From Jimgerdemannia flammicorona (taxonomy: Eukaryota), in the NCBI GenBank assembly GCA_003990765.1, contig RBNJ01000199.1, positions 1 to 36,990 of the forward strand: 36,990 bases of DNA, read 5' to 3'. Both the position numbers and the translations under genes were made by a program. A model generated the notes under the pieces. That model was not told where the DNA came from. It worked only from the letters and a program-made list of their open reading frames with translations, and did no database searches. Positions 1,471-36,400 of this stretch are shown here, in pieces (the stretch's first letter is position 1; the number at the start of each line of letters is the position of its first letter).

Positions 1471-2157
1471 ATTTATTATTAAGAGTATTATTAAAGAAGA
1501 GAGAGAAAAAACAAAAAGTAAAAACAAAATCAAAACCAGACTCTTGATTTATAGTTTATATTTTATTGACTATTTAAATATAATATAATATAATATAATA
1601 ATTTAGTATTTAAGTATCAATATAATTAATATCTAAAATAAGATTATTATTATAAAAATATATAATATTTTAGCTTAATTTTCTTAATTAGTTATATTTT
1701 TTTCTTAATATTTTCTATCTTTTTTTAATATTAAGTATTTTATCTTAGCTAGTTATTGAGCTTTATAAAATATTTTATAATATATCTTTTTATAGCTTAT
1801 TAAATAATACTTATAATTTTGAGAGTAATAATTAAACTTTAGTTATTATATATATTTCTTAAGTTATAATTATAAAAATAATTATATAAAATAATTGTTT
1901 TTATTTTAATTTCTAATTTTATATTAACTTTAGTAACTTATATTTTTTTAAATATTTATCTTTATTTAATATAATTTTTAAATTATATTATTATTTAATA
2001 ATAAATATTCTTCAGAACTTTCTTCTTTAAATAATATTTCTAAAATATAAAATAAATACTTTATAATTTTATCTTTAAGAGCTAACAAGACTGATGATAA
2101 AAAATAATCTCAATTTTTATATTTATCATAAAGATCAAAGATCTTAAAAAGATGAAC
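1471..2157. other. Extremely AT-rich, mutation-saturated relic DNA
   Basis: Seen: almost no C or G, TpA-rich, no CpG. It resumes in the same style at 10145-10450 on the far side of the solo LTR. Confidence 0.6.
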
Positions 2158-2772
2158 TATAAGAGAATTACTTATAAAAGTACTATTATATAGTTCTAGA
2201 AGAGTTTTCTAGAAGTTCTGAATATTCTAAAAGACTATTTTCTTAAAATTAGGATTAATTTTATATAGAGTATATTCTCTATACTTATTAATTTTAAGAT
2301 TGAGTTGATATCTCAACTAAAGTCCTTTTTTAGACTTATTTTAGATATTTAGGATTTTTTATATTTCAGAAAGTTCAAAAAACTAAGATTAGCTTAGTTG
2401 AATTAGTATATTGTTACAGATAATATCCAATTAGAAAATTTTGTAATATAATTAAGAGTAGGATCTAATAGGATATAGATTTATTTAAGAGTAGTTTATA
2501 GATTATTAAATAGATTTATTTACTATTTATAATATTATTATACTAGGAGTAGTTTGTATGAAGAGATATTGTAGAGAAGTGTTTAAAAGTCACCTTTCTC
2601 AGTTACAATTTATATTACACATACTTTTACAATATACTTTCAAGTTGTTTATTGAAGAAAGGTACTAAGACAATAGTAAACAGTAAGTAATCTGAGATAT
2701 GTACTGAGCAGAGTGGCCCTAGTGTGTTTGACTAGCAGTAGGTGGAGAGAGATCCTAGTCTGGGGGGGGGGT

Positions 2773-4735: not shown

Positions 4736-4752
4736 ACACACCATATTTCATT

Positions 4753-7700
4753 ATGAATAGTACAACCAATATTTTCTCTTTGAATATAAATAAGTTACAG
4801 GGCACTTCTTGATGTAGGAACATTTTTACTTAACTGAAGATATTAGAGGCTAATCTCTTCCTCTTACAGGATATCAGGTGTGAGGATGATTTGGATAGGC
4901 TGGAATAAACAAAGAAATGGGAAGGTGAGGCAGTTTGGAAGGACAAGGTTGGAATTCTGGTCCAAAAGGGTTGAGGGGAGATACAGGAGATGAGGAGATA
5001 AGAGGATAGATTGGTCTGAGGAGAGTAGATACATATAGGTTGGGAGCTAGTTACAGTGGGCTCCTGTTACTGCTCTGCTATATAGAGTGAGTATGTGGAT
5101 TGGGTGAAGAGTCTTCAGGAGAGTGGGGTCCTTATGGAGGCTGGGGTGGATATACTTGATGGAGACTTCAATATAGTCTGAGATATACTAGTAGATAGAA
5201 AATATAGTGGAAGGGGAGCTGAGAGTAGAAGTGGAGGATTGGTGGCATGGGAGGATGTAGAAAGGCTAAGTGCTCTGGTAGATACTGATAGAGAATATTG
5301 GAGAGATAAGAAGATATACATACACTGGGCAGGGGGTCTGGAGACAAGGATTAACTAAATACTAACAGCTAGTTACTGGAGATTGAATGTTTAGAAGTTA
5401 CTAGAAGTGAAATAGTATCCTTGGTCAGATCATTAGGGGCTGTTAGGGCAGGGACATTTTGGAAGAAGTGGGGATGGGCCTGGACATTGGTGACTCAATT
5501 CCTCCTTATTAGATGATAGGATCTAGTAGAAGGCATAGACAGAAGACATTCAACTAAGGGTGGAGAGCTAGAGGCAGAAAGGTGTCCTGGTTGATGTTAA
5601 GTGGATGAGAATGAAAGCAATGGCCAGGGTTTACTAGAGTGAGGCTGGTAGGGAGACTGGGAAGCAGAGGAGATGATGGGTGAGATGGGCTTCTATTAGA
5701 CTGATCAGACTCTTAGAGGATTGGACAGGGCTAGTAATAGTGGGAGAGGAAAGAGAGGATTGGAGATTGATAAGGGTGAAAATAGAGGTTAGTGAATTAC
5801 AACAGGTACTGAGAGATGAGGAGGAGGCAAGAATATAGAGCTTAGTAGCACAACTTCATTGATAGGGATTGGAGGAAGGAGAGAGGCCCTCTAAGTATCT
5901 CATGAGAGCTCTTTAGGTGAGAAGGGTACAGTAAAGGTGAGAGGGAGTGGTTGACTCTGATGGTATACTGGTACATAGTATACAAGATATTCTTGGTTCA
6001 CTAAAGGAGTGATGGAGTGGATTATAGAGTGAGGAGGAGGGGGGAGCAGATGCTGCTGCCATTGATCAGACATTGGAGAATTGGTACTCTCCTCAAGCAG
6101 TTGGGCTAAGTGACTTAATATTGTTAGTATGAGAGGATGAGATCTACCAGATTCTTGTCACAACAACCCTGGACATAGTATCTGGAGAGGATGGTCTGCC
6201 CTGAGACTTCTGGAAGAAGATAGTAGGAGTCTCAGGATTTCTGGGTGCAATGATAGTATTGTGTGACTTTATATTACAGACAGAGAGATGGGTGGGGGAA
6301 TAGGATCTGAGGCTAGTGACACTGCTTTACAAGAATAAAGAGAGGCAAGAGAACTGGTAGAACTGGTGGCTGATTATGTTGCTGGATATAGACAGAAAGT
6401 TAGTAACTAAGGTAGTAGTTGCAAGGCTATAGAAGATGATCTAGCAAGTTCTGAGTGTTGAGAAAAGGGGCTTTATAGGAGGCTGGCTCATTAGAGATGG
6501 TACAGCTTGGATACATAGAGTTATTGAAGGGGTATGAGCCTGTAGACTAGATGGGTGATTGGTCTTCTTGGACCAAGAGAAGACTTATGACCAGGTGCAG
6601 TGAGTCTGACTGGTAAAAGTATTGGATAGAACTGGGGTACCACAACAGTTCTGGTCAGCAATGATCAGCCTACTGGAAAGGAGTAAAGCAGTGCTCATTT
6701 ATAATAGACATCACAGAGTATCATTTCTCTTAGATAGGGGAGTACTCCAGGGGGACCTGCTGTCCTCCATTCTATATGTTCTTTCTCTGGAGCCCCTAAT
6801 GGACAGAATCAGGTAGAAGATAATGAGGCTCTCTATCTTTGGAATTGGGTAGAAAGTTGGGATCTTTGCAGATGATATGGTGGTTGGTCTGAGATCTGTT
6901 ACAGATACTAAAGAGCTCAAAAAGATAGTGGAGTGGTACAAGGAGAACTCTAGAGCTAAACTCAATTGGCATAAGTGTGAAACAATAGTGTTGGGCAATG
7001 GCCTGGTGGGTGGGAATATCATCAGAACAATTGTCCCTACTGGCAAGATAGTGCAGTACTTGGATATTTATTTATCAGTATATGAGTTGGTACTTCTTAG
7101 ACTTTGGTAGGAGCAGAGGGTTAGAATCTGGGGGGAGGCTCTGCAGAGTTAGAGGGGTCACCATTTATCTCTAGCAGGGCATATCTCGATTTTGAATATC
7201 TATTGGCTACCAAAGTTATGGTATCTGGCTTATCATCTGGACTTCCCAGCCTAGGTAGTGAAGTGATTGTTGAAGCTGGCCAAGAAGTAGATCTGGGCTA
7301 GAAGAAGGGGTCAGATCAGTTGGGAGGTCTTATCCTTATTAGTGATAAGAGGAGGACTTGGGCTGGTTAACTTTCTGAAGTAGCTACACTGCTTGAGAAT
7401 ATGATAGTTGAAGAGAGTGGTGGAATTGAGAGGAGGTAGTTGGATTCTCCTATTACAGAAGGTCTGGGAGATGAGATCCTCACTAAGAGGCTTAATAGGT
7501 AATCTTCTATCATTGGTGAAGCTTTAGAAGACTGCATAATTGCAATATAAAGGCTTCTGGTGGGGAGTAGCAGAGGGGGCACACCACATTGGAATTCATT
7601 GGCAGGGGAATAAAGGAGAGGTGGCTTGGGACCCAGAGATATGGTGATGAGACTGAGTGTTGTTGAGAGGTATTCTCTTAGTTGAGTTTGACATTAGTGA

Positions 7701-8440
7701 TAGAATAGACTACCAAAGGGGACAAGACCAGGATCTGTGACCAAGCAGATGGCAGAGAGTTGGTATCAGAGAAGAGTAGAACTAGCATAGTGTGTAGGCC
7801 TAGAGTGCTAAGGTGAGGAGATAGATGCCACCAAAGTACTGGGTGGTCTGGTGGCACTTGCTAAGGAGGAATGTGATGCTCAACTTCCACTTGGATCACC
7901 TTATCAAGAGGGGTTGCTTTGACTGTGAGGAGTGCCACAATGTAGGGCAAGAAGGGGAATATATACAGATGCCTGAACATTGGCTAGGAGAGTGTAAGAT
8001 ACTTAGTGACTTCTGGCAGGCTATTAGAGACCACTTGGGGGTAGTGTGTCAGAGGGATAGTATATAGAGTTGGTGAGAAGATCTGAGAAATAGACTGATA
8101 GGGAGGAGTGGGAAAGGAGTAACTTACCTTAGGCTGGGTTTTGGCAATTTGGATGGGGCTGGCCAGTTACTGGCTATTTGTTTTTGAAAATGAGAAGAGA
8201 CTTGGCTTAGGGGACCAGTTGTTACATTGGCATGGCCTTATAGAAGACACCTTGACAGACTGGTGGCTTGGTTGGGAGCTGTAGGGTAGTTGAAGATACT
8301 ACTTAGTAGAGAAGATCTGTAGGCAGAGTAGAGAGAGGGTGAAGGTAGTAGGTGAGAAGGTGGTCTTTATTTGTGATGATACTAGAAGGAGCTCCTCTAT
8401 GGGAATCAGATAGAGAGAGAAGATGCTGTATAATTATGAA
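4753..8440 (+). pseudogene. LINE copy 1 ORF2 remnant (APE endonuclease, reverse transcriptase, zinc knuckle); end approximate
   Basis: Seen: MNSTTNIFSLN start, endonuclease-like (G)GDFN, and RT motifs GEDGLP, IMLLDIDRKL, LVFLDQEKTYDQV, GVLQGDLLS and FADD (6865-6876). C-terminal CFDCEEC...EHWLGEC. Numerous premature stops. Confidence 0.9.
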
Positions 8441-8775
8441 TAGATTAGTAATAAATGATGGAGTCCAAGTGACTATAAAAAAAAAATAAAAAAAAAAAGT
8501 ATTTAGAAGTTCTATTTATACATATCTATTTGTATCTATTTGAGTCTGAGTTTCTAAGGTCTGGAGGAGTAGGTATTTATACTAATAGAGGGCTATCTAG
8601 ACTATACTAAATATAGATATAGTACTTAGTATCTTATTGAGTCAGAATGTAGTTATATAGTATAAGTATAAACTGATATGTATATCAAGAGATCATCTGA
8701 CTGCTGAGTCAGTATGTAGTTACATCATATGAGGCTAATCTAACTATACTAGTGACTGTTAAGCTATCTATAAAT

Positions 8776-9872
8776 TTAGATGATATCTAGATAGTTTTCA
8801 ATAAGATTACTATTGATAATATCATCTTTGATAAAGTATTATCTAAGAAGAGTAGTTCTTGGATTATATCTTCTTATTTATTTATATAGTAGTAGGTTGG
8901 AACTATATCACCATTCTACAAGATGGCATTATCTGTCTCATATACTAGATAGAGTATTAGTAGGTAGAGAAAGAGTACATTATCTTTGCTTTTATCAGAT
9001 TTGTTATCTGTATACTTTCTATAAGTAATAATACTATAAGTTGCAAAGTTATAGTAAGCTAGTAGCTATGGTTCATTTCATTTATATTTAGAAGATAGAG
9101 TTATTGGTTTAATCTCAAGGGTTGTCTAGAAATATAGGTTGTATTCTTTGATCTCTTTATTATAGTTGAAGTAGTTAGATATAAATATAGATTAGTACTT
9201 ATATCAGTAATCATTATCCTAATAGGTCTTGTAGGTAATTATGAACTATTATAAGTTTATTAGTAAAGTTAGTAGAGTAATCAGGGCTAGTAGAGATTTT
9301 TAGCTAAAGATCATATTAGTATTAGAGAAATTATTATCTTTTACTTTATTATTATTGAACTAGATTATATTATAGATATTTTTTATAGTATATCCAACTT
9401 AGGGCATTGGTAGAATATAATTATCAGAGTGCAAAAAAGTTCTGTCTATAGTTTAGATATACTCAATATACTTATAGTTGAGTTCTTATACTATATTATT
9501 AATTTGGCCATAGGATAGAGTAGTAACTATTTCAGTAATAGTAACTTGAAGATAGAGAATAAAGATACTATACTTATAAAAGAGTTCTTAGTATTTATAG
9601 ATAATGAGTTTTTAATGTTGAGATATTTGAGTAATATCTATATTATAGTAATGTTCAACTATATCTTCTAGGAGATGATCAATCTGATAGTAGTTTGAAA
9701 TTTGTCTAATTTGGTGAGCTTTGCTAAATATATTTAGAGTATTCTATTAGACTTCTATAAAGTAAAGAGATACCAGGCTATAGATATTCATAAGGGGCAG
9801 AGGAGGTGTGGCTCAGTTGACAATAGTATTCCAAATGTCAGTATAGATGTAATTGTAGATCTTGGTAGTTAT
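8776..9872 (-). pseudogene. Heavily mutated copy of the LTR U3 ORF
   Basis: Seen: colinear with 32072-33169. The start codon reads ATA at 9872. TGG is retained at 9833-9831, where copy B has TAG. Confidence 0.7.
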
Positions 9873-10615
9873 AGTTATATATATGTTCAAAAGTTATAGT
9901 TATTTGTTTAGTTTATTGTAGTTCTCTATTTTAATATATCTGAGTACTTAGTATATATATATTTAGTTCTGATTAGTAAGGTTTCATTTGTGTAAATCTT
10001 ATATTCTGTAACTTTGAGTTGACTCAGCTTTGTACTCTATAACTTTGACTTGACTCAGCTTTGTAATCTTATATATAATTTCCAGATTTATTTAGAGAGT
10101 AATGTATAATTTTAGTGGCTTAGAGATTTTGTACTTATATAAACAATCAATAATTATAACTCTAGCATTATGATTGATAGATGAGCTTAGTGCTTAGAAT
10201 AAATTGAATTTTGATCTAATTTAATTCAAAGTTCAATTTAAAATAAATTTTTCAAAATTTAATAATTTAACCAAAATATATTTAAATTTAATAAATTTTA
10301 GTTTATTTAATATATCTTATAATAGAGAATATAATATAATAAAGAATATTAAATTTAGATATATTTCTATTAAGTTATTATATTTTGAATTTAAAATAAA
10401 TATTTCAAATTAAATCAGACTCTAATTTAATTCATTTGAAAATAATCTTAAATATAGTTAGTGCTCCAAATGAGCTGATTCAGATCAGATTCAAATCCCA
10501 TCCAGATCAACTTAGATGGGATTCAAATCTCATCTGGATTGATTTGAATCAATCATTGTTTTGATTTTTAAATTAGAAAATTAAATATTTATATTAATAA
10601 TTCAATAAATAATCA

Positions 10616-10848
10616 TCCAATTTTGATGATCTTGATGTTATTTGAAAGCCCTTAATGAAGTCTTTCTAATAATATCAAGAACATTGAAATTGAACCATAT
10701 ATTGCTAAGTTATCAAGAAAAATGTCTGACTTACTAATTTTGGAAATTTCTTCAAAAGAATGTTTTTCTTAATAGCTTAGCAATACATAATCCAATTTTA
10801 ATATTCTTGGTATCATTAGAAAGGTCTTATTAAAGGCTTTCAAATGAC
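10616..10848. repeat. Long inverted repeat (~105-bp arms); each arm contains a 33+13+33-bp palindrome; the right arm is completed at 16680-16700 after the LINE
   Basis: Seen: 10616-10722 is the reverse complement of 10763-10848 joined to 16680-16700. Confidence 0.85.
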
Positions 10849-13800
10849 CAGCACCTTTCTCAGCTATCATTAACATTACACACACTTTTACAACATACTT
10901 TTAAGTCATTTATTGAAGAAAGGTACTAAGGCAATAGCAAATAGCAAGTAATCTGGGGCACATACTGGACAGGGCAGCCCTAGTGCATTTGACTGGCAGT
11001 AGGTGGGGAGAGGTCCTAGTCTAGGGGGAGACATGAGAGGGCTGTTGGCAGGAAGATGAGGCAGAAGAGGAGGCAGTAGTAGAGAATAGGGGTCTAGAAG
11101 AGCAAGCTTTGTAGAGATGGTGAAAGAGAGGCAGTAGTCATCTGAGTTGGAGGATTGGCTGAGGAAAGGCAAGGAGATAGAGAAGACTACAGTTCACAGA
11201 GAAGTAGCCCTTGGTAGTGAGGGCAGTAGAGCTGGGAGAGTAGTGGCTGGGGAGAGTGTGATGGCTGATAGAGATGTGACTGCTGATGGTGTGGCTGAGT
11301 GACTGAGGCTTAGAAGGTAAGGAGATTTGGTAGATAGTGTGACAGGCCTAACAGTGGCCCCATTACTCAAAAAATTAATCTTGGTATTCATGGTGATATT
11401 GTGCTTCTGGAACCTGGCAGTGATGGCAAAAATGGTACTAGGGCTTATTGCTAAGCAGATGACTGAAGTAGCATCTGTAAAGTTTCTGAAGAGATTGGAG
11501 GGAGTGGAGGTGGACTTTGAAGAGGTCAAGCCTTTGGAGAAAGTACTGAAGGTTAGATTGATAGTTGGGGAAGTATATGTTCCGATGATACACTGCCTGA
11601 AATGGAACCCCAGGGTGGTCCAACTGCTAGTGAAAGGAGTATCTATAGTGACAGCAGTAGAGATGAGAAGGAGAGTCAAGGAGGTCATAGTAGAGTATGG
11701 AGAGGTGGTAGATATTGGATTCAGAGTCTGGGAAGGGACCTCACTCAGGACTAGAGATGTAGACATGAGGATTCAGCTGGCAGAAAAAGAAGCTACTGAG
11801 AAGGCAAGAGACTAGTCTTTGGAAATGGTCTGGGAGATAATCTTGTATAAGGTAATAAGGGTGAAGAAGAGTGAGGAGAAAGAAGAGGACTTACTAGAGA
11901 TACTGAAAGAGCTGAGTGGAGTAGTAGAGTAGCAGGTGAAGGCTTGAAGGACTTTTGTAGAGTCAATATACTTAGAGATAGTGGATAAGAAGCAGGTTCG
12001 AGTGGACAAGAGATAATGAGAAAAATCTCAGAGTTGTAAGCATCAGAAGGAGCTGCTAGCTAAGATGGAAGGTCAACCACAAAAGGAGGTAGGTGGAATA
12101 GTGGAAACAGGGGATGTCAAGACAAGTATCTGGACCAGTAAGGATGGTGAGAGTATAGAGAAAGAGATAAGAGAGGACAGGAAAGTAGTTGGTAGTGACC
12201 TGTATACTGATGGTATGTTTGAGGTCTGAGAAGAAAACTGAGAGAGATTGTTTACCCCTACTTCTCTTATCAGGTGAGGTCTGGCTTCCTAAAGTAGGGT
12301 GGGAGAAGATGTGCTGATAAAGGGGGCCCAGTAAGTGCAATTTGGAGTTTCTGTAGTAGCAAATGGAGGACAAGTGGTGGTAGTTGGAGAGGAGGAACTG
12401 GTGGATGTCCTGGAGGTGTGAGATGAGGTGGCAAGTACTGGGGCTGATACTATAATGTTGGACAGTAGGAAACTAGCAACTTCTGGAGGGAAGGAGGTGG
12501 GAAACCTACTTTGGATGTACAAAATGATAAATAACCTGATAGTGGAAGAGTTGGGAGAGGTAGACTTGAGAGTAATAAGTGATGAGCATTGGGTATAGAT
12601 CCTGCAGGGGGATAGTGTAGAGTTGGCATTAAAGGCAGAGATCTTTACAGTATATCTGGAGGAGGAAGAGTATGAGGTGGATAAGGAGCAAGAGGCAGAG
12701 CTAGCCAGGGTTAGTGGTAAGAGGGCTAAATACTATTAGGCCAAGTAATATGAATTGTAGCTCTGGCAGGCGGCCTGTCTAGAGTATCGAGAAGAGTTTG
12801 AGGAGTAGGTAGATGGGGAGATGAATGAGCTATTGGTTGAATTGGAGGCTCAGAGGGCTGAGAAAATAGAGGTGACTATGGAACATAATCTGGATTTGGC
12901 ACAGAAGGAGATAAACATAAAGTAGTAGAGAAGGACTTGATAATATACCATATTTTATTATGAATAGTACAACTAATATTTTTTCTTTGAATATGAATAG
13001 GTTACAGGGTGCTTATCAATAAAGGAACATTTTTACTTGGCTGAAGGGATTGGAGGCTGATCTCTTCCTCTTGTAGGATATCAGATGTAAAGATGATTTG
13101 AATAGACTGGAATAGACAAAGAAATGGGAAGGTGAGGCAGTTTAGAAGGGCAAGGTTGGGATTCTGATATGAAAAGGTAGAGGGGAGATAAGAGATATAT
13201 AGAGCTGGGGAGATAGATTGGTCTGGGGGAAGTAGATATGTGCAGAATGAGAGCTGGTTACAGTGGGCTTCTATTACTGCTCTGCTATATGGAGTGAGTA
13301 TATAGATTGAGTGAAGGACCTTCAGGAGAGTGAGATCCTTATAAAGACTGAAGTAGATATGCTTGGTAGAGACTTCAATATAGTCTGAGATATACTATTA
13401 GATAGAATAAATAGAGAATGGATCAAAGTAGTAGACTAGTAGTATGAGAGGAAGTGGAGAGGCTAAGTGTATTGGTGAATATGGGTAGGGAGTACTGGGG
13501 AGATAAGAGGGTATATATGCATTGGGCAAAGGGCTTGGGGATGAGAATTGATTGGATTCTGACAGCCGGCTGCTGGGGCTTGGATGTTTGGAAGTCACTG
13601 GAGATAGAATGATATTCTTAGTTAGATCATTGAGAAATTTTAGAACAGAGGCATTTTGGGAGGAGTGGGGATGGGCCTGGACATTGGTACCTCAATTTCT
13701 CCTTATTAGATAATAAGTTCTGGTAGGATGAGTAGACTGTGGACATTCAACTGAGGGTGGAGTGCTGGAGACAGGAAGGTGCCCCAGTTGGTGTTTGATA

Positions 13801-16665
13801 GATATAGATGAAAGAGATGGCCAGGACCTACTGGAGGGAGGCTGGCAAGAAGGCTGGGAAACAGAGGAGGTGATGGGTGAGATGGACTTCTAGTAGACTG
13901 TCTAGACTCTTGGAGGATTGGGCAAGACTAGCTATATTAGAGAGGGAGGAGAATTGGAGATCAAGAAGGGTGAAAATAGAGGTTGGTGAACTACAACAGA
14001 TATTACAGGAGGAGAAAGAGGCAAAGATGCAGAGTTTGGCAGTGCAGCTCTGTTGGTAGAGTTTGGAAGAAGGGGAGAGACTCTCAAAGTATCTCACAAG
14101 AGCCCTTCAGGTGAGAAGGGTATAGTAAAGATGAGAGGGGGTACTTGACTCTAATGATATACTAGTGCATAATATACAAGATATTCTTGGATCTTTAAAG
14201 GAGCATTGGAGTGGATTGTAGAGTGAGGAGAAGGGTGGGGCAGACACTGATACTATTGACTGAGCATTAGAGGATTGGTGCCCCCTGCAAGTAGATGGGT
14301 TGAGAGACTTAGTGTTGCCAGTACAAAAAGAGGAGATCTATCAGATTCTTACCACAACAATGCTAGGTATGGCACCTGGAGAGGATAATTTGCTCTGGGA
14401 CTTCTGGAAGAAGATGGTGGGAGTTCCAGGAGTACTGAGTGAGATAATAGCATTATGTGATTTTATTTTACAGACAGGGAGATGGGTGGGGGAATAGGAT
14501 CTGGGGTTGGTGACATTGTTTTTCAAGAACAAAGGAAGGAGAGAGGACTGGAAGAACTGGAGGCCGATTATGCTACTGGATATAGACAGAAAGTTGGTCA
14601 CTAAGGTAGTGATCATGAGGCTACAAAAGGTGGCCCAGCAAGTTTTAGGTATTGAACAGAGGGGCTTTGTAGGAGGCCAGCTCATTAGGGATAGTATAGC
14701 TTGAGTACATGGAGTTATTAAAGGGGTATAAGCAAGTGTATTGAATGGATGACTAGTCTTTTTAGACCAGGAGAAAGCTTATGACTGGGTGAGATGAGTC
14801 TGGCTGGTGAAAGTATTGGATAAGACTGGGGTTCTATATCAGTTCAGGTCAGCAATGGTCAGCCTACTGGAAGAGAGTAGGGCTGTGCTCATGTGTAATA
14901 AATATAGAGAGGTAGTATTTCCCCTTGATAGGAGGGTACTTCAGGGGGACCCACTGTCTCCCATTCTGTATGCTCTTTCCCTGAAATTCTTAATGGATTG
15001 AATTCAGCAGAAGATAGTAGAGCTCTCTATCTTTGGCATTGGGTAGAAAGTAGGGGCCTTTGTGGATAATATAGTGGTAGGCCTGAAATCAATTGCTGAT
15101 GTTGAGGAGCTTAAGGAGATAGTGGAGTGGTATGAGGAGAACTCTGGGGCTAAACTTAATTAGCATAAGTACAAAACAATAGTGTTAGGCAATAGTCTGA
15201 TAGAAAGGGAGATTATTGGAACAATTGTCCCTTCTGGTAAGGCAGTGTAGTACTTGGGTATCTATCTGTCAGTTTATGGATCAGTTCTATCTAGACTTTG
15301 ATGGAAGCAGCAGGTTGGAATCTGAGGGGAGGCCCTGCAGAATTGGAGGGGTTGCCAATTGTCTCTGGTGGGACATATCTTGATTTTGAACATCTACTGG
15401 CTGTCAAAGTTATAGTATCTAGCTTATCATCTAGACTTCCCAGCCTAAGTGGTGAAGAGATTGATGAAGCTGGCCAAGAGGTGGATCTGGGCTGAAAGAA
15501 GGAGTCAGATCAGCTGGAAGATCTTGTTCTTACCAGTGGCAAGTAGTGGACTTAGGCTGGTTAACTTTTCAAAAAGACTGCACTGCTTGAGAGTATGGTA
15601 GTTGAAGAGAGTCATAGAGTTGAAAGAGAGAGGTTGGGTTCCCCTATTGTAGAAGGTCTGGAAGATAAGATCTTTGCCAAGAGACTTAACTGGAGATCTC
15701 CTATCTTTAGTTGGCCTTCAGAACATTGAATAATTGTGATATAAAGGCTTCTGGTAGAGGGTGATGGAAGGGGCATACTGCATTGGAATTCATTGGCAGG
15801 AAAATGAAGGAGAGATGGCTTGGGACCTGGCAATATAGAGATAGGACTAAGTGTTGCTGGATGGCAGTCTCTTAATCAAGTTTGACATTAGTGATGGAAT
15901 AGAATGCCAAAAGAGACTAGGCCAGAATATTGGTGAAGAGTGAGACTGGCATGGTATTTGGGCCTAGAGTGCTGAGGTGAGAAGATGGATGCCACCAAAG
16001 TACTGGGTGACTTGGTGGTATATACTGAGGAGAAATGTAATACTCAACTACCACTCAGGTCACCTTATCAAGAGAGATTGCTTCAACTGTAAGAAGTGCC
16101 ATAATGTAGGGCAGGAAGGGGAATATATACAGATGCCTGAACATTGGCTAGGAGAGTATGAGATACTTAGTAACTTTTGGTAGACTATTGGGGATTAGTT
16201 GGGAGTAGGGTACAGGAGAGTTGGTATGTGGGGGTGGTGGGAGGATTTGAGAGATAGACTAGTGGGAGGGGGTGGGAAAAGAATAGCTTATGTTAGGCTA
16301 GGCTTTGACTATCTGGATAGGGTTGGCTAGTTACTAGCTATTTGTTTTTGAGGATAAGAGGAGACTGGGATTAGAGGTCCAGCTACTGTGGTGGCATAGC
16401 CTTATGGAAGATACCTTGACAGAATAGTGGCTTGGTTGGGGGTTGCAAGATGGTCAAAGATATTGCTTAGTGGAGAAAATCTGTAGGCAGAGTAGGAAGA
16501 GAGTTGGAGTAGTGGGTGAGAAGGTGGTCTTTGTTTGGGAGAGAGTGGGGAGAGGCTCTCCTATAGAGATCAGATAGTGGGAGGAAATACTATAAACTTA
16601 TTAATAGACTGATAATAAATGGCAGAGTCTAAGTAACTATAAAAAAAAAAAAAAAAAAAAAAAAA
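10849..16665 (+). mobile_element. Full-length degenerate L1/Tx1-like LINE, copy 2
   Basis: Seen: colinear with copy 1, ORF1 ATG at 11033, ORF2 ATG at 12960, motifs NWRPIMLLDIDRKLVTKV, QRGFVGG, DQEKAYD and QGDPLSPILY, poly(A) at 16641-16665. The 17-bp TSD is AAAGGCTTTCAAATGAC (10832-10848) / AAAGGCTTTCAAATAAC (16663-16679). Confidence 0.93.
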
Positions 16666-16720: not shown

Positions 16721-17899
16721 ACAATGACCATCCCTTTCTCCACTATCTTACCAGTCACAATAGTTTGGTAGATAACCTTCTAAGTCTACTTTTCCCAACT
16801 AAAACCCTCTCTATCTTAGATTGGGTTGCTATACCTATTATAGGGCAATAAGTGAGAGGCAATGGTGATGAGTTGCCTCTTTATCAGTATTAGATCAGTG
16901 TCTTCTCTACTTTTTCATAGTTTCTGATACCTTCAGCTATATCTGGAATATATTTATTTTAGTGTAACACCTTCTTTCTTTTGCTATTATCAATAAGGTG
17001 CTGTCTTGGTATATCATGGGCTATATAGAGAGTCAGCTGACCTTGGGTATCAAGTGCTCAGGTAGGTTACCTGTAGGTCCTCAGTATCTATAGTGGGACC
17101 CTCTGACTTTAGTGAGCTTCTCAATAAGCATGGTTCTGGTATAGGTGACTGCTTTTCAGGTATTGTTAGAATGGGAGAGGAGATGGTCATCACAGATAGG
17201 AGAAAGGATGATAACAGTGAACTAGTAGGGTGTCAGGCTGGGGACAGTCATTAAGGCTGGAGTGAATACTACTTTAGTGAGGTCTTTTGATTGGTGCAGA
17301 GCAGTTAGATAATAGATACATATCACTTTTGGCTTCTTTTGATAATTCAGCGAGTTAAGCCTCAGTTATTAGGGGGAATCAGGGGGTCCAAGGCTACCTA
17401 TTTTAGATATCTTAACTGTACTCAACTAGAACTGAGAGCTGATATGACAATGTAATCAAGGCTTGCAGACTTAAGTAGTAGAGCATTGGAGATTTCCTCT
17501 TGCCTCATATATAAGTCCTTTACTTATCTTGACTAGGAGAACCAAGCTCTACCTATTATGATATACTTTGATGAAAGTTTTTTCTTTGTCTATTATTCTT
17601 TTTGAAATGGTAAAAACTATTCTATTTAGCTCAGATATAATCTTATACATATGTTGGAGTCTCAAGTATGTGCTTTCAGTCATTGACATATGACTGAGTT
17701 CTCTCTAGTAGTAGAGAAAATATAGTATATAGAATAAGATATAAGCTAACATAAACCCTGTTATACCTGATATGGTCAAACTACTAGATAATAACTAGTC
17801 TAGATTAATAGAGAAGTAGTGCTTGATGAGTGATGAGAGAGGATTTTGACCTATATAATCTAGATTCCCTTCCAATAAAAATCCATAAGACATTGAGTC

Positions 17900-17971
<72 letters not shown>
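16721..17971 (+). mobile_element. 5'-truncated poly(A) retroposon of a different family (probable LINE 3' fragment)
   Basis: Seen: CpG-depleted body, AATAAA near 17874, 68-nt poly(A) at 17904-17971, and a candidate 7-bp TSD AATTCAA (16714-16720 / 17970-17976). I could not align it by eye to the 3' ends of LINE copies 1-3 and recognised no protein motif. Confidence 0.6.
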
Positions 17972-17973
<2 letters not shown>

Positions 17974-18119
17974 CAATCCAAATCCAATCCAAATCCAATC
18001 TGAGTTAAATTGACTTGTTCGAAATACTAAATATAGTATATATAATACTATTATAATGTATATCTACTATGTTCTACAAGGAGATCTATAAGACCATTGT
18101 GTTAACATCAGAGCCATTA

Positions 18120-18650
18120 CTGGATTTGAATATATATACAAAAAACTAAACAAAATGTAATGTTGAACTCAAAGAACTGTAAGAATAGAATTCTTTCTAA
18201 ATAAAATACAGAAGAATGACAATGAATACAAACCTTCTTAAAGATCTTCATATGTATAAACTCTACAAATGTCATCTGCATGGTCTCAGCCCCCCAAGCA
18301 CACAGCTTCTATGAGCTGCTTGATGATGTTGTCAACCACCTACCCAAACCTGCCATAATGCATCAGAAGGGGCATATAATCAAACATAACCAGTATGATG
18401 AGCCTTATGAGCATACTCAGGGTAGTCTTGAAATGAAAGACCTCAATCGATCTGGTGGTGTCTGCGGTAGCAGCATTCATTGCCTCTGTGAAACAATGGA
18501 CCACACGTGTTAAAGTATTTATCTCCTTTACAAACCCACATCAAAGAAAAAACATAGCTCTCACAAAACCCACCTATATTCCATTTCTCTTTTCCTGTTG
18601 TTTTCTTCTTGCTACTCTCCCCCCCCTCTCGCCACCATGGCTCTCATCTC
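18120..18650 (-). pseudogene. Decayed intron-containing fragment resembling the C-terminal region of cohesin subunit Scc3/STAG; outer limits approximate
   Basis: Seen: GT-AG introns at 18573-18486 and 18233-18177. Exon 18485-18234 translates EAMNAATADTTRSIEVFHFKTTLSMLIRLIILVMFDYMPLLMHYGRFG*VVDNIIKQLIEAV, with a stop and apparent +1 shifts in G-runs. Inference from remembered family motifs (STAG KLII...HY...DIIK; fungal LLxHYGR); no search was run. Confidence 0.5.
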
Positions 18651-18699
18651 CGGCTCGCCCCTCAGGGCGCGTCGTTGGAGCGGCAGCGGGAATAGTAGT

Positions 18700-19262
18700 A
18701 CTAGAAGCGGCGTGGCTGCTTCGAGGTAGCAGTCGCATGGCGCATTGTAGAAACAGCCACGAGGCACGTTACTGTAGTGGTGGCAGGGCTCATAGTTATA
18801 GAAGCAATGGGATGCGTCGTGGCAGCTGCCGCAGGGTGCATTGTGCTTGCAGCCATGGGGCGTGTCGTAGTAGCAGTAGCGGTGCGCGTCATGGTAAGAC
18901 CCGCGGGAAGCAACGTGTTAGCAGCCACGATGCATGTCATAGAAGCATCCAAGGGAAGATCTTGCATGGTAGACGTATCGTTAAAGCATTCAAGAGATGG
19001 TCTGGTGTGGTGGAGTGCGTCGTGATAGGGCCCGCGGGGCATGACATATAGTAGCAGCCATGGGAAGGCCTTGAGTGGTGGAACGCATTGCGGTGGAGCA
19101 CATCGTGGTAGAGCACGTCTTGATAGAGCCCGCGGGGCACGATGTCGTAGCAGCCACGGGACAGCCTTGAGTGGTGAAGAGCATCGCGGTGGAGGGAGCG
19201 CGTCATGGTGGTGCGCGTCATGGTGGAGCGCGTTGTGGTAGGGCCATGGAATGCGTCGTATA
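18700..19262. repeat. Degenerate GC-rich minisatellite (24-bp and ~15-bp units)
   Basis: Seen on the minus strand: actacgacacgccccatggctgca / agcacaatgcaccctgcggcagct / gccacgacgcatcccattgcttct and similar units. A ~85-bp higher-order duplication contains gccttgagtggtg twice. Confidence 0.7.
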
Positions 19263-19332
19263 AGCAGCGGCTGGGCTAGGCTGGGAGTGTGTGGAGGTTG
19301 AGCATGGTTTGGGATCTTGTTATTCGTAGAGG

Positions 19333-19489
19333 TTATTGGGAAGACAAGAAGGGTGTAAAATAATCTTATTGGGAAGACAAGAAGGATGTAAAATAATCTT
19401 ATCAGGAAGAAGATGTAAAATAATCTTATCAGGAAGAAGATGTAAAATAATCTTATTGGGAAGATAGGAAGACAAGAAGGATGTAAAAT
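19333..19489. repeat. Tandem repeat, five units of 27-41 bp with core GATGTAAAATAATCTTAT
   Basis: Seen: ttattgggaagacaagaaggRtgtaaaataatc x2, ttatcaggaagaagatgtaaaataatc x2, plus one longer variant. Confidence 0.9.
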
Positions 19490-19686
19490 GAAATGGCCAC
19501 TTTAAATTACTTCCACCAAAGGTAACATTTTAAAAGTGGCAGCCTCAAATAATCTGGCTGAAAGCCCATATCTTGGCACACATACTTTAACAAATATCAA
19601 TCAATAATAACAATAAAGAACCTATCGAATTTAGGGTAAAAGCGCGTACCTCTACCACATATGAGTAAAATATCAACATTCATGAC

Positions 19687-19897: not shown

Positions 19898-19997
19898 TGT
19901 GCTCTGGTATAATGCGCTCCTAATTCTCACTCAATACCATACCACACACCACACCACACAAAAACAACTCCAACTACAAACAACTCCAACTACAACT

Positions 19998-20555
19998 ATG
20001 TCGCTTATCAACCGCGTGTTCCCAGAGATCTTCCGTGATGCCGGCCGCGCCTTTGCCATGCTGGACGATCCCTTTCTTCAGGCCGCCCGCCGCTCCATCG
20101 TTCCCGGTTTCGGCTCCCTCCGCCCGGCAGTTGACATCTCCGAGACGGATAAGGCCTACGTACTTGAGGCCGAAGTGCCCGGCATGAAAAAGAAGGATCT
20201 CGACATCGAATTTACCGACGACACCACCCTCATCGTCAAGGGTAAAATTGAGCGCTCTTCCGAGACCGGAGCCGGCGCTGGTTTCGGTGCCAAGGACGAG
20301 TCCATCATCGAGCAAGGGGAGAATCAGCAGCAGCAGTCAACTGACGTCGTCAGCGCCGAGGGTCCCCAAATGGGCGTAAGCGACCCGCGCCAGACCTGGT
20401 GGTCCAGCGAGCGCGTCCTAGGTTCATTCCAGCGCTCGTTCACCTTCCCTGGAAAAATTGACCCAGCCAACGTCAAGGCCACGTATAAAGATGGCGTTCT
20501 GACTATCACCGTGCCAAAGCCCGAGAGTAAGGTCAACAAGATCACGATTGATTAA
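19998..20555 (+). CDS. HSP20: Small heat-shock protein (Hsp20/alpha-crystallin family), 185 aa, intronless
   Basis: Seen: MSLINRVFPEIF... with alpha-crystallin motifs PAVDISETDKAYVLEAEVPGMKKKDLDIEF and SERVLGSFQRSFTFPGKIDPANVKATYKDGVLTITVPK. The ATG at 19998 follows the TATA box and leader. Confidence 0.96.
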   Translation: MSLINRVFPEIFRDAGRAFAMLDDPFLQAARRSIVPGFGSLRPAVDISETDKAYVLEAEVPGMKKKDLDIEFTDDTTLIVKGKIERSSETGAGAGFGAKDESIIEQGENQQQQSTDVVSAEGPQMGVSDPRQTWWSSERVLGSFQRSFTFPGKIDPANVKATYKDGVLTITVPKPESKVNKITID

Positions 20556-30620: not shown

Positions 30621-31395
30621 GTTCCTTGGACTTTACCATTTATTAACAGTCTATCAAAGATAAGTATAGTACCCTATCCCACTACTCAATCTCTCTAGAG
30701 GGGCCCTTCCTCATATTTTTATATTTGAATACTATTTTACTACTTACTACTATTACTCTCCTCTCACTCTGTTCACAAATTTTCTTTACCAAATAACACT
30801 AATGACCTCCCTGTAGACCTCATCCCAGTTACCAATCTATCAAGATATCCACCATCAACTCTTTCTACCTTGTCAGCTGCTCTCTTAAACCCAAATACCT
30901 CTTTTTTTCAAAAACAAATAGCCAGTATCTAGCTAGCCCCACCCATATAGCTAAAACTCAACCAATAGTGAGTCACTCATTTCCAACCCCCTCTATCAAT
31001 CTATCTCTCAGATTCTCCCATTAATCTCTTTCACCATTCCCCCTCCTCATAACATCCAATCTATTCTCAACTACTAATCAAAAGTCTCTAAGTATCTTAC
31101 ACTCTCTCAGCCAATGTTCTGGTATCTATACAAACTCCTCTTTCTGTTCTATATTATAATACTTCTCACAATCAAAGTTTCCCCCCTCTATAAGGTGGTC
31201 TGAACAAAAGTTGAGCATAATATTTTTTCTCAGTATATACCACCAAACCACCCAGAACTTAGATAATAGCTATTGCTATATCTCTGCACTTCAGGTCCAA
31301 ACTCTATTCTAGTTCCACCCCTCTCCAATACCTACTATCTGCCAGCCACTAAGCCATATATCCTATCCTAACCCTCTCTAGTACTTAACCTCATC

Positions 31396-33457
31396 TGTAA
31401 GAGGGTTACTTTTTAGGGTAACTATTACGTAGTTCTGGAAGGGTTTTCTGGAGGTTCTGGATATTCTGGAAGACCATTTTCTTATAGTCAAGATCAATTT
31501 CATATGGAGTATGTCCTCTATGCTTATTGATTTCAAGATTAGATTGACGTCTCAACCAAAGTCCTTTTTTGGACTAGTTCTGGATGTTCAGGATTTTCTG
31601 TATTTTAGGAAGTTTAAAAAACTAAGACCAGCTTAGTTGAATTGGTGTATCGCTGCAGACAATACCCAATTAGGAAATTTCATGATGGGGATAGGATTGG
31701 GACCTAATAAGGAGCAGATTTACTTAAGAGTAGTTTGAGGGTTATTAAATAGGTTTATTTGCTATTTATGATATTACTATACTAGGAGTAGTTGTATAAA
31801 GGGATATTGTGAGGAAGTGTTCAGGAATGTTCTTGTGTGTTCGAGTCTGAGATTCTGAGATCTGGGGGAGGGGGTATTTATACTAGTGAGGGACTATCTA
31901 GACTATGCTAGATATGGATATAGCACTAAGTGCCTTGTTGAGTTGGAATACAGTCACATAGTACAAGTGTGATCTGATATGTCAAGAGATCGTCTGACTG
32001 CTGAGTCAGTTCACAGTCACGTCATACAAAGCTAATCTAACTATACTATGACTGCTAGGCTATTTATAGGTTTAGGCGCTGTCTGAGTAGTCCTCGATAA
32101 CATCACCATTGATGACATCATCTCTGATGAAGTAGTCGTCTAGGAAGAGTGGTTCGCAGATTACTTCTCCTTGTTTGCTGAGGTAGTAATATATTGGGAC
32201 TTCGTCTCCATCCCATAGGATAGCATCATCTGTCTCATAGGCTAGATAAGGTATAGGTGGATGAAGGATGGGTGTATTGTCTTCACTTTCATTGGATTCG
32301 CTGTCTGTATACCTTCTATAGGTTATAGCACTATGAGTTGCAGGATTGTAGTAAGCTGGTGGTTGTAGTTCATATTGCTCATACTCAGGTGGTGGAGTGG
32401 TTGGTTCGATCTCGAGGGTTGTCTGGAGGTACAGGTTGTGTTCTCCGGTCTCTTCATTATAGTTGAAGTAATCAGGAGTAAATGCAGGTTGGTATTCGTA
32501 CCAGTGGTCATTGTCTCAATAAGTCTCATATGCAGTTATGAACTGTTGTAAGTTCATCGGCAAGGTTGGCAGAGTGATCAGGGTTGGCAGAGATCCTTGG
32601 CTAGAGGTCATGTCAGCATCAGAGGGATCATTGTCTTCTGCTTCATCTTCATTGAAGTGGATTATATCGTAGATATCCTTCATAGTATATCCAACTTGGG
32701 GTATTTGCAGGATATGATCATTGGGGTGTGAGAAGGTTCTGTCTGTGGTTTCGACGTACTTGAGGTACTTCTGGTTGAGTTCTTGTATCATGTCATCGAT
32801 TTGGCTGTAGGACAGGATAGCAACCATTTTGCTGATAGTGACTCGGAGGCGGGGAATAATGGTACTGTACTCATAGAAGAGTTCTCAATGTTTGCAGGTG
32901 ATAAGCTTCTGGTGTTGAGACATCTGGGTAATGTCTGTATCATGGTGGTATTCAACCATATCTTTCAGGAGACAGCTGATCTGGTAGTAGCTTGAGATTT
33001 GTCCGATTCGGTGGGTCTTGCTAAGCATGTTCAGAGCATTCCATCAGGCTTCCATGAAGTAGAGGAGTGCTAAGCTATAGATATTCATGAGGGGCAGAGG
33101 GGGTGTGGCTTGGTTGACAATGGCATTCTAAATGTTAGCATGGATATGGGTATAGATCTCAGTGGTCATGTTTGTGTGTTTGGAAGTTGTAGTTGTTGTT
33201 TGTTTTAGTTCTCTGATTCGACACGTCTCAGTGCTTGATATATATGCATTTGATCCTGATTGGTAATATTCCGTTTGTATAAATCTTGTATTCTGTGACT
33301 TTGTATTGACTCAGCTTTGTATACTGTAACTTCAGGTTGACTCAGCTTTATGATCAAGCAGGTGATTTCCAGATTTGTTCAGAGGTCGCATGTGATTTCA
33401 GTGGCTTGTTCAGAGGGTGACATGTAATTTCAGTGGCTTGGAGGTTGTGCACTTACA
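31396..33457 (-). mobile_element. Solo LTR copy B, 2062 bp, the less mutated copy
   Basis: Seen: TGTAAG...CTTACA inverted termini and a perfect 5-bp TSD TCATC (31391-31395 / 33458-33462). On the minus strand, TATAAATA near 31882-31875 is followed by AATAAA at 31759-31754. Established: TG...CA ends with a 5-bp TSD are LTR retrotransposon hallmarks. Confidence 0.9.
32072..33169 (-). pseudogene. 365-aa intronless ORF of unknown function inside the LTR U3, broken by four transition-type stops
   Basis: Seen: one continuous frame from ATG 33169 to TAA 32072 (MTTEIYTHIHANI*NAIVNQATPPLP...DVIEDYSDSA) with no frameshift. The internal stops are one TAG and three TGA, restorable to TGG and CGA. Confidence 0.85.
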
Positions 33458-36400
33458 TCATCACTAATATCAAAGTCAATTAGGAGAGTACTCTCTAACA
33501 ATACTCAATTCCATCTCTACATTACTGAGCCCTATGGTATCTCTCCTTCAGCCTTCTATTAGTGAAGATCAATATAGTGTACTCTATCTACTACTCTCTA
33601 CCAGAAGCCCTTATACTGCATGCACTCACTGTTCTGAAGCCCAACCAAGAACAGTATATCTTCTATAGAGCCCCTTGGTAAGAATTTCCTCTCTCAGACC
33701 TTTTTCATCAGAGGAACCCAGCTACCACCCCTCAGTTCCATAGCTCTCTTCAGCTATCAAGCTCTTAGACAATACAGCCTCTTTGAGAAGTCAACCAGCC
33801 TAAGGCCTTCTCTAGCTATTAGTAATGACAAAATTTTTCAGCTAATCTGACTCCATCTCTTAGCTCAGATCTAACCTTTGGCTAACTTCAATAGTCTCTT
33901 TACTACCTAGGCTAGAAAGTTCAGATAATATACTAAATACCATAGCTTTAATAGCCAGTAGACATTCAAAATTGAAATACAACTCACTAAGAAGATGTAG
34001 TGGCCTCCTCAGCTCTGCAGAGCCTCCTCCCAAATAGCTATCTGCTACTCTCACCAAGGTCTCAGTAGGACTGATCCATAGACTAAAAGATAGATGCCTA
34101 AGTACTATACAGTATCTCCAGTAGAGATAATTGTTCCAATGACATCCCCTTCTATCAGACTATTGTCCAACACCATTATTTCATACTTATACATACCAGT
34201 TAAGTTTAGCCCCAGAGTGTGCCTCATATCACTCCACTATTTCCTGGAGTTTCTCAATATCAGTGATTGATCTCAGGCCAATCACTATATCATCTGCAAA
34301 GGCCCTAACTTTCTACACAATTCTAAATACCAAGAGTCCTATTATCTTTTGCTAAAATCCTATCTATCAATGGCTCTAAAGATAGAGTATACAAAATAAA
34401 AGACAGTAGATCTCTCTGAGGAACTCCTCTATCCAGAGGAAATACTACCCTCTGATGTTTATTGTATATGAGTACTGCTCTACTTCCTTTCAGTAGACTG
34501 ATCATTACTACTCAGAACTGCTGAGAGACTCTAATCCTATTTAGTATCTTTACTAACCAGACCTATCTGACATAGTTATATACCTTCTCCTAATCTAGGA
34601 AGACCAATCTCTCATTCAGTTCACAGGCTTGAGTCTCTTCAATAATATTATAAACCTAAGCTATATTATCCCTAATGAGCTAGTTCCCTATAAAATCTCA
34701 TTACTCCTTACTCAAGACTTACTGGGCCACCTTCTGCAGCCTTACAACCACTATCTTGATGATCAACTTTCTGTCCATATCTAGGAGTATAATAGGTCAC
34801 CAGTTATTCCAGTCCTCCCTCCTATTCTTGTCCTTATATAACAGTGCTACCAGCCTCAGATCCTGCTCTCCCACTCACTTCTCTGACTATAATACCAAAT
34901 TGCAAAGTGTCATTATCTCTTCCAGCACTCCAGGGACTTCCATTATCTTCTTCCAGAAGTCTCAGGACAGACCATCCTCTCCTGGTGCTATGTCTAGTAT
35001 AGTTGTAATAAGAATCTGGTGAATCTTCTCCTCCTGTACTGATATAATCAAGCTACTAAGCCCATCTACTTATGGTGAGTGCTAATTCTCCAAAGTATGT
35101 TCAATAGTGGTAGCATCAGTCCCACCCTCTTTCTCACTCCACAAACCACTTCATCTCTCCTTCAGCAAGCTTAGAATATTTTATAGACCATATATCAGCA
35201 GACTATCAGAATCTAGTACCCCCTCCCATCTCTGCCTCACTCTCCTCACCTGAAGGATCCTTGAGAGATACTTAGAGGGCCTCTCTATCTCCTCTAGCCC
35301 CTGCCAGCATAGCTATATAGCCAAACTTCACACCCATATCTCCTCCTCTCTCAATACTTGTTATAACTTAGTGATCTCTAGCTTAGCTTGCATCAATCTC
35401 TAGTTCTCTACCCTCTCCAAGATCAAAAGACCTGCTCAATTTTCCTGAAGCCAGGTCAATCTAGTAGAAGCTCAGGTTATCCTCCTCTTCCTCTGTCTTC
35501 CTGCTATCTTACCAGCCTCATCTTAGTAAACCCTAGCAGTCTCCTTCAACCTCACCTATTGAACACTAACTGGGACACTCTTATGGACCCAACTCTCCAC
35601 TTTTCACCAAATGTTCTCAGCCCAATTATCTCATAACTCCTTCTTAGCTAACAAAGAGGAATTGAGATACTAATGTTCAGGCCTATCCCTACTTCCCCCA
35701 AACCACCCATGCCCTAATAAGCCTTAATAGTCTAACTATAGACAGACTTCCAGACATCTAGACCCCAGTAATTGGCTATCAGCACCCAGTTAATTCTAGT
35801 CTTCAGACCACTCACCCAATAGGTATAGATCCTCCTATCTCCCCACATTGCCCATCCAGCATCTACTAAGGAACTAAGTTACTCTACCTCCTCCCAATTC
35901 TTCAGACCACTACTCCTGCTCTCTGCATTTCTCCCCCCATCTGTCTTGTCCAACTGTGCCAAGCAAACTATATTGAAGTTCCCTCCAAACACCTCTACTC
36001 CTGTCTCTGTAAGTACTCCACTATCTAAAAGACTATTAATTCACTCTATATACTTGCTCCTGATCACAGGACAGTAGCAAGATCCAACTATAATCTAGAC
36101 TAATACCACTCTCTCTAAACCATATGATTTTCCCAGTTTCTACTTTCACATATTTCTCCTCACCCTTTCTATACTAGTAGCCCAATCTTGCTATTTCAGA
36201 CTGCTACTCTACCCCATTCTCTTGTCTACTTCTATTAATCAAGATTCTCCTCATATCATACATTCTATAGAAGAAAGAGATCAGCCTCTAATCTCTTTAA
36301 CCAAGTGAAAATGTTATGTTACCTTCTAGCACCCCACAGGCTATTTATATTCAATGAGAAAATGTTAGTTATACTATTTATAAGAAATAATGTTAAAATA

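Follow-up and report, generated by a model that had tools for sequence, protein, structure and literature searches.

A Solo Long Terminal Repeat in Jimgerdemannia flammicorona Carrying an Orphan Accessory Open Reading Frame in Sense Orientation

Results

The locus and the 2-kb unit: A 36,990-nt stretch of the Jimgerdemannia flammicorona genome (assembly GCA_003990765.1, contig RBNJ01000199.1), referred to below as the window, was analysed over its full length, and its repeat layout was derived by comparison of the window with itself. Two copies of a 2-kb unit were found, one (copy A) within a copy of a non-long-terminal-repeat retroelement (long interspersed nuclear element, LINE) and the other (copy B) split by a further copy of the same LINE. 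The unit is a real solo long terminal repeat (LTR) that holds an orphan accessory open reading frame (ORF) in sense orientation. The positions of all features are collated in Table 1.

Table 1. Features of the two LTR copies and of the surrounding LINE copies, in window coordinates and, where given, in sense-strand coordinates of LTR copy A.
Feature	Window position	Strand	LTR position	Remarks
Solo LTR copy A, 2062 bp	31396..33457	-		TGTAAG...CTTACA ends; sense = window minus strand
Left target-site duplication of copy A	31391..31395			TCATC
Right target-site duplication of copy A	33458..33462			TCATC
Tandem repeat of 32 nt, 2.1 copies	33375..33440	-	18-83	Enhancer-like; near LTR 5' end
Two TGAGTCA sites	33344-33338, 33313-33307	-	114-120, 145-151	Each within AAAGCTGAGTCAA; upstream of ORF
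TATA-like run ATATATAT	33245-33238	-	213-220	69 nt upstream of ATG; motif only
CA-rich leader	33237-33170	-	up to 288	
ORF, 365 codons + TAA	33169 to 32074-32072 (32072..33169)	-	289-1386	
First TATAAATA after ORF		-	1390-1397	
TGACTCA	32002..32008	-	1450-1456	Between ORF and downstream TATA box
Second TATAAATA	31882-31875	-	1576-1583	Candidate genomic-RNA promoter; motif only
AATAAA poly(A) signal	31759-31754	-	1699-1704	Motif only
LTR end			2062	
Solo LTR copy B, 3' part in sense orientation	2158..2590	-		Heavily mutated by RIP; target-site duplication TGAAC, 2153-2157
Solo LTR copy B, 5' part	8499..10139	-		ORF remnant 8776-9872; target-site duplication TAAAC, 10140-10144
LINE copy 1	2591-8498	+		Splits LTR copy B; RVT_1 E 5.8e-18
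LINE copy 2	10852-16665	+		Self-comparison
LINE copy 3	36960-33460, continuing 31344-30596	-		Host of LTR copy A; self-comparison

Ends and target-site duplications: A first-pass annotation, made from the letters of the window alone, had described TG...CA termini and a 5-bp target-site duplication (TSD) for copy A, and both were recovered, with TCATC on either side of the unit. The corresponding empty site in the LINE was found in contigs of the public runs X1 and X10, in which position 31379 is joined to 33460/33462. The termini of copy B (TATAAG...CTTATA) are variants of those of copy A produced by repeat-induced point mutation (RIP), and its two duplications, TGAAC and TAAAC, are one G>A apart. 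LINE copy 1 within copy B is bordered by a 12-nt TSD of its own (GTGTTTAAAAGT / GTATTTAGAAGT, at 2579-2590 and 8499-8510). Because the two copies of the unit have common ends and each carries a separate 5-bp duplication, they represent two independent insertions of one discrete mobile unit. Two hallmarks of LTRs were thus found, namely TG...CA ends with a short inverted repeat (6 bp) and a 4-6-bp TSD at independent insertions.

The reading frame: On the minus strand of copy A, a frame of 365 sense codons is interrupted by only four stops (TAG14, TGA42, TGA95, and TGA218). The six frames contain 4, 16, 31, 9 (antisense), 25, and 32 stops, and none of 2000 shuffled sequences had four stops or fewer in the best of three frames (mean 14.4, minimum 6). 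The residues found at the stop positions in two metagenomic relatives described below are W, R, and R (P0004) and W (P0002), so that each stop is a single G>A or C>T step away from a sense codon, in agreement with the earlier description of an ORF hidden by four transition stops. The counterpart in copy B (8776-9872) is colinear, as had been stated, and contains 21 stops; among the stop positions of copy A, TGG is kept there at codon 14 only, which is the restored Trp codon of the first-pass annotation. The ORF is dead in both window copies (four stops in copy A, 21 in copy B). It lies wholly inside the LTR, with the ATG 288 nt in and the stop 676 nt before the LTR end; the earlier proposal of a gene that survives solo-LTR formation therefore holds structurally, but both solo copies at hand are dead.

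Identity and orientation of the LTR: Contigs from four public runs (two soil metagenomes, organism A, and organism B, the last being run X10) were aligned to the unit at a likeness of at least 80%, and 3391, 647, 481, and 377 related contig pieces were obtained. With thousands of pieces in four runs, the retrotransposon family is abundant, and it is so in soil metagenomes. The sequences adjoining other copies were taken from the best 24 of 247 alignment rows with loose ends. Most of these flanks differ from one another, as expected for dispersed insertions, and two recur. Beyond 33457, five contigs of run X2 and one 200-nt contig of run X7 among the rows listed continue with ACTCTCCCCTTCT..., which on the minus strand reads AGAAGGGGAGAGT directly before TGTAAG and constitutes a polypurine tract, with a purine run of 13 nt abutting the TG end. 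Before 31396, two X7 contigs among the rows listed read CTTACA-ACT-TGGTAGCAGCGG on the minus strand, which places a TGG-initiated, primer-binding-like site 3 nt past the CA end. This site may correspond to the complement of the end of an initiator-Met tRNA. The window has no tRNA gene, and a literal search of papers for the 12-mer of the site returned unrelated primer matches only. Read as a polypurine tract adjoining a 3' LTR and a primer-binding-like site following a 5' LTR, the two flanks agree in making the strand of the ORF (window minus) the sense strand of the LTR. The LTR identity given in the first-pass annotation is thereby supported by the ends, by the TSDs of both copies, and by the two kinds of flank in other copies. 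In full-length copies, a TGGTAGCAGCGG-like sequence would be expected 3 nt past the left LTR and AGAAGGGGAGAG ahead of the right one; in the self-comparison, neither window copy is paired with another in direct orientation.

Anatomy of the LTR: In sense orientation, the ORF is followed on the same strand by the second TATAAATA and by AATAAA, as had been claimed for the TATA and poly(A) signals; these two motifs, some 120 nt from each other, are found on the strand to which the polypurine and TGG-site flanks point. The TATA-like run upstream of the ORF and the CA-rich leader, which resembles the Hsp20 leader at 19930-19994, are likewise present as motifs. The sequence TGASTCA, which we take to be a Gcn4/AP-1-type site, shows no enrichment across the window (nine matches against 6.56 expected), and only its concentration in the LTR copies is of note: seven of the nine matches fall within them, at three colinear positions. 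The sites survive in RIP-ruined copy B as TGAGTCA at 10020 and 10051, with the counterpart of TGACTCA at 8705.

The summed contig depth of run X10 in 76-nt bins is 1300-6300 over 31524-31827 and about 10-18 over 31828-32131; the step, at around 31828, lifts the depth from some 10 to over 3800 and is located some 50 nt downstream of the second TATAAATA. As a weak hint, this step would fit a genomic-RNA start about 50 nt past that motif, and hence a short terminal repeat region (R), if the run is RNA; that it is RNA is only a guess, and transcript starts cannot be proved from the depth of contigs.

In DNA run X1, the summed depth over 31448-31751, presumed to be R and the unique 5' region (R-U5), exceeds the depth over the ORF part (32056-33423) by a factor of 2-3. 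This difference suggests related LTR subfamilies that have R-U5 in common, without the ORF-bearing 5' half being common to them.

The protein: The predicted product (P0001) is an orphan that appears to consist of a helical N-terminal part of about 170 residues and a very acidic, Tyr/Pro-rich C-terminal half. Pfam returned no family at E <=0.01 for P0001 or its relatives P0002 and P0004 (GrpE, at E 0.057, was below the cut-off), in keeping with the earlier observation that no gag, protease, reverse transcriptase, integrase, or transposase motif can be recognised. The PDB sequence search gave no chain at E <=10. The ESM Atlas gave no usable lead: feature matches of P0004 comprised fewer than 170 shared features and no consistent family, and the Atlas model of P0002 (pLDDT 0.39) had best structural matches at TM scores of <=0.30. 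AlphaFold2 (AF2) models reached a pLDDT of 29.9 for the whole protein and 55.2 for the N-terminal 128 residues, which is too poor for fold matches to be meaningful.

Of the two protein halves that the first-pass annotation had distinguished, the acidic C-terminal one was confirmed by measurement, residues 171-364 having a pI of 4.05, 42 D+E against 4 K+R, 20 Y, and 19 P. The helical N-terminal half was seen in the AF2 secondary structure only, which is all-helical over about the first 140 residues at low confidence. The C-terminal half is probably disordered, given the low pLDDT of the P0002 Atlas model. An acid-hydrophobic motif at its end, EPLF(L/I)D(D/N)YFIRDDVI, is conserved in the alignment of P0001 with P0002. 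The start (MTTEIY...) does not look hydrophobic enough by eye for a signal peptide. PPEY at 260 and PPAY at 270 of P0001 were considered as a late-domain-like signal and rejected, both being missing from P0002.

Relatives and selection: Searches of 5.8 billion clustered and 1.84 billion representative proteins yielded only two relatives of P0001, both metagenomic fragments without stops. P0002, a 247-aa product of a 998-nt contig in ENA, aligns with residues 115-364 at 63% identity, and P0004, a 128-aa product of a 1180-nt JGI contig, with residues 1-128 at 80% identity. Among the clustered proteins, one relative was found in 437 candidates of near length, one in 32 shorter candidates, and none in 1030 longer ones; when P0002 and P0004 were compared with the window by tblastn, the two LTR copies were the only matches. 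The representative search gave three matches at E <=0.001. The third, P0005 (E 3e-6, 34% identity), was rejected as a relative, because the similarity of this tandem-repeat protein is confined to a motif of about 37 residues, which is matched six times. Its cluster comes from ENA contigs of up to 138 kb, and the repeated motif LSFDKIADFIEKLN.GY resembles residues 119-135 (LSYSQIDDMIQELNQKY), a likeness that is probably due to chance.

Four partial comparisons favour purifying selection on the ORF while the family diversified, although none would be decisive alone. Between P0002 and P0001, 205 of 250 alignment columns are positive (82%), as are 47 of the 88 mismatches, and only two gaps, both in frame, occur. 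In 900 neutral simulations carried to the identity of P0002, positives averaged 74-75% (maximum 80.2%) and positive mismatches 30-32% (maximum 45.5%). RIP does not produce transversions; those that separate copies A and B are distributed over the three codon positions as 7/5/15 (n=27). Only two of the nine indels between these copies fall in the ORF, one of them at the edge of the ATG, and the ORF makes up 53% of the unit. Differences to other public copies were evaluated for the best 40 of 524 by support; 24 of these 40 lie in the ORF, at codon positions 7/3/14 (p = 0.02), and 13 of the 24 are synonymous, compared with an expectation of 20% when all changes are considered, or 33% when only transitions are. 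The ORF was thus probably once coding.

A 9601-nt contig of run X10 (depth 369) matches 32262-32470 over about 210 nt, with a further 42 nt after a skip of 104 nt, in the sense of the ORF; the match to the C-terminal half lies near one contig end and is followed by unlike sequence. This contig could stem from a related element whose LTR is a different one, or carry a gene with the same domain.

RIP mutation: Sister copy B has been destroyed by RIP. Relative to copy A, 383 of its 513 substitutions are G>A or C>T, and the sites converted are CpA (209/298, 70%), CpG (40/56, 71%), CpC (72/177, 41%), and CpT (63/293, 22%). The TpA/ApT ratio of copy B is 1.28 at 25% GC, as against 0.63 in the genic part of the window. 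Copy B thus combines C>T/G>A transitions, a preference for CpA, and a raised TpA/ApT ratio. Copy A has been hit lightly (TpA/ApT 0.88, 41% GC), yet it carries four stops. Taken by itself, such a mutation pattern would suggest an ascomycete with RIP, and the sequence context a eukaryote.

Neighbouring repeats and genes: The LINE, present in three copies in the self-comparison, is about 5.9 kb long and has a poly(A) tail; with stops read through, the Pfam family RVT_1 is matched in two copies (E 2e-21 and 6e-18). As LTR copy A lies inside one LINE copy and LINE copy 1 inside LTR copy B, the two families have inserted into one another. The LINE sense strand is G-rich and C-poor in all three copies and in either orientation (G:C about 2.6:1, GC skew about +0.5 or -0.45), and differences between copies are mainly G<->A; the strand skew thus seems to characterise the family as a whole and not to result from single RIP events. 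At 17887-17975, a run of about 80 A follows GAGTCTATT, a sequence similar to the 3' end of the LINE copies (GAGTCTAAGTAACTAT plus poly(A)); a fourth insertion, strongly truncated at its 5' end, may have left this tail. The stretches on either side of copy B (1483-2150 and 10140-10850) have 15-25% GC, with low-complexity AT repeats, and are probably older repeats degraded by RIP past recognition.

Ordinary genes occupy the middle of the window, for instance the Hsp20 gene at 19995-20555. Upstream of this gene, a long open stretch (18437-19501), for which no Pfam family was found, contains at 19007-19232 at least two copies of a unit of about 96 nt that are 76-83% identical. Rfam and tRNA-gene scans of the window gave no matches.

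Discussion

Proposed working: We regard it as fairly probable that the unit is a solo LTR left by a family of LTR retrotransposons in a host capable of RIP, with a sense-oriented, gene-like cassette served by two promoters. The downstream TATAAATA would drive the genomic RNA, which would place the ORF in the unique 3' region (U3) of the LTR; the chances of this are put at slightly better than even. The upstream module would drive a separate mRNA ending at the poly(A) signal of the LTR, a step to which we give about even chances. With its own promoter and poly(A) signal, any LTR, whether 5', 3', or solo, could express the protein; alternatively, genomic or spliced RNA could provide the ORF at its 3' end. 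The protein might be a trans-acting regulator or adaptor serving the element, such as one that activates the element's LTR. This function is proposed tentatively, as an unlikely guess by analogy with retroviral transactivators, because the tail looks like an acidic activation domain. The accessory-gene reading of the first-pass annotation is retained for the LTR, for the sense ORF, and, probably, for its former status as a gene; its placement in U3 rests on motifs and a weak depth step.

A bolder version, in which each LTR is a gene complete in itself, from promoter and leader through the ORF to the poly(A) signal, and the protein acts in trans for the family as an LTR activator or, as the first-pass annotation had conjectured, as an anti-silencing factor, is considered quite improbable. 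If it were true, each transposition would plant two gene copies, every solo LTR derived by recombination would retain one, and old solo LTRs would help young elements, the silencing countered being RIP, quelling, or heterochromatin.

Several results weigh against the two-promoter cassette. The evidence from flanks is thin, with six contigs for the polypurine flank and two for the TGG-site flank among the best 24 of 247 rows. No full-length gag-pol element with paired LTRs was found in two metagenome, six viral-contig, and two genome-contig scans. The metagenome scan made with an alignment (A1) gave 99 pattern matches and no relatives, and that with a 20-mer spanning the LTR end and the polypurine tract gave no matches; five viral-contig scans and both genome-contig scans gave no relatives. 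A viral-contig scan with P0004 reported one tblastn-confirmed relative without its locus, and two of the other five, made as a follow-up, did not recover it. The promoters, the transcription start site, and the poly(A) site are known as motifs only. As to selection, the N-terminal 128 residues covered by P0004 look neutral (86% positives against 87% simulated), the indel test of the ORF gave p = 0.063, and the constraint test on other copies covers the best 40 of 524 differences. The lack of stops in P0002 and P0004 is an ascertainment effect, because only open frames are called as proteins. Read from the alignment, the differences to P0004 are nearly all G>A or C>T in the window copy and would reflect recent decay.

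Alternative readings: The upstream TATA-like site might instead be the sole promoter, so that the ORF would lie in a long R (or R-U5) as the first cistron of the genomic RNA. The upstream 290 nt are indeed U3-like, with tandem repeats, two TGAGTCA sites, and a TATA-like run, and a 2-kb R behind a 243-nt U3 is described for rice Retrosat2 in the available part of the source (PMC3485330). The consensus TATAAATA and AATAAA downstream of the ORF, however, give a canonical short R, to which the depth step of run X10 adds a weak hint, and a 365-codon ORF ahead of gag would be expected to hinder gag translation. On balance, we hold this arrangement to be unlikely.

The ORF might also be a passenger, i.e. 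a host or foreign coding sequence captured in a variable 5' half of the LTR, without function and decaying everywhere. Such an origin would suit an orphan protein without a retroelement domain, an N-terminal part without a constraint signal, and the higher X1 depth over the presumed R-U5, which looks as if relatives share that part only; the 5' half of the LTR also varies between subfamilies of Podospora crapaud, as far as the available text goes (PMC10787394). It is harder to reconcile with a 63%-identical copy that is still open over 247 residues and whose replacements are more conservative than in all 900 neutral simulations, with the bias of differences towards third positions and synonymous changes, or with the finding that no host-gene relative occurs among the 1.84 billion representatives. 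A mere passenger is judged unlikely as well.

That the unit belongs to another class, as a small, complete, non-autonomous mobile element with TG..CA ends and 5-bp duplications by chance, is very improbable: each window copy stands alone in the self-comparison and the metagenome scans brought up no pair, but the purine run abutting the TG end and the TGG site 3 nt after the CA end agree on one orientation, the terminal inverted repeat is only 6 bp long, and no transposase was found.

Significance: With every insertion, a conserved ORF in a fungal LTR would gain two copies, and it would persist in solo LTRs, which would alter how such a gene evolves. Annotation practice would be affected as well, since solo LTRs are normally masked as non-coding; that gene callers have almost never picked up this orphan, of which two fragments occur among billions of proteins, shows how such genes are hidden by repeat masking. 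The family would also offer a tractable fungal system for the roles of retroelement accessory proteins in a RIP-defended genome.

Comparison with known systems: Extra ORFs of LTR retrotransposons are on record, the examples below being taken from sources available in part. Boty of Botrytis carries brtn, an antisense ORF between pol and the 3' LTR (PMC7264820, PMC4227169), and the rice elements Retrosat2/RIRE carry ORF0 upstream of gag-pol (PMC3485330). Like these, of which brtn is the fungal example, the ORF studied here is a lineage-restricted addition to an LTR retrotransposon; unlike them, it is internal to the LTR, whereas brtn and ORF0 lie in the internal region and are hence lost on solo-LTR formation. 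Cassandra, Helenus, and Ajax hold a small-RNA gene with its own promoter in each LTR (PMC10886601), but these are pol III small-RNA sequences in non-autonomous plant and animal elements, as opposed to a protein-coding ORF. The crapaud elements of Podospora are a fungal LTR family subject to RIP; the variable and exchangeable part of their LTR is its 5' half, so that capture of foreign sequence into a fungal U3 is plausible; in contrast to the present unit, the ORFs described in the available part of that source are gag and pol, none being described in the LTR (PMC10787394). No report of a protein-coding ORF inside a fungal retrotransposon LTR was found in the literature searched, which omits most subscription journals, and the extra ORFs of LTR retrotransposons described in that literature lie between the LTRs. 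Among the papers listed, those on ORFs in LTRs concern mainly mouse mammary tumour virus (MMTV), besides unrelated usages of the term.

The textbook cases of accessory genes within LTRs are few and come from complex animal retroviruses. In foamy viruses (tas/bet) and in the human and simian immunodeficiency viruses (nef), accessory frames overlap U3 and start in the internal region, while the ATG of the present ORF lies 288 nt inside the LTR; homology to these genes is covered only by the negative Pfam and PDB searches. Foamy-virus Tas, a transactivator with an acidic activation domain that is expressed from an internal promoter, served as the model for the functional guess made above. The closest analogue in architecture is sag of MMTV. 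The fungal unit differs from it in its host, in belonging to a retrotransposon rather than a virus, and in lacking any sequence relation (no Pfam match, including any Sag model); what the two have in common is a complete sense ORF of about 320-365 codons that lies inside the LTR and is hence present in every LTR copy.

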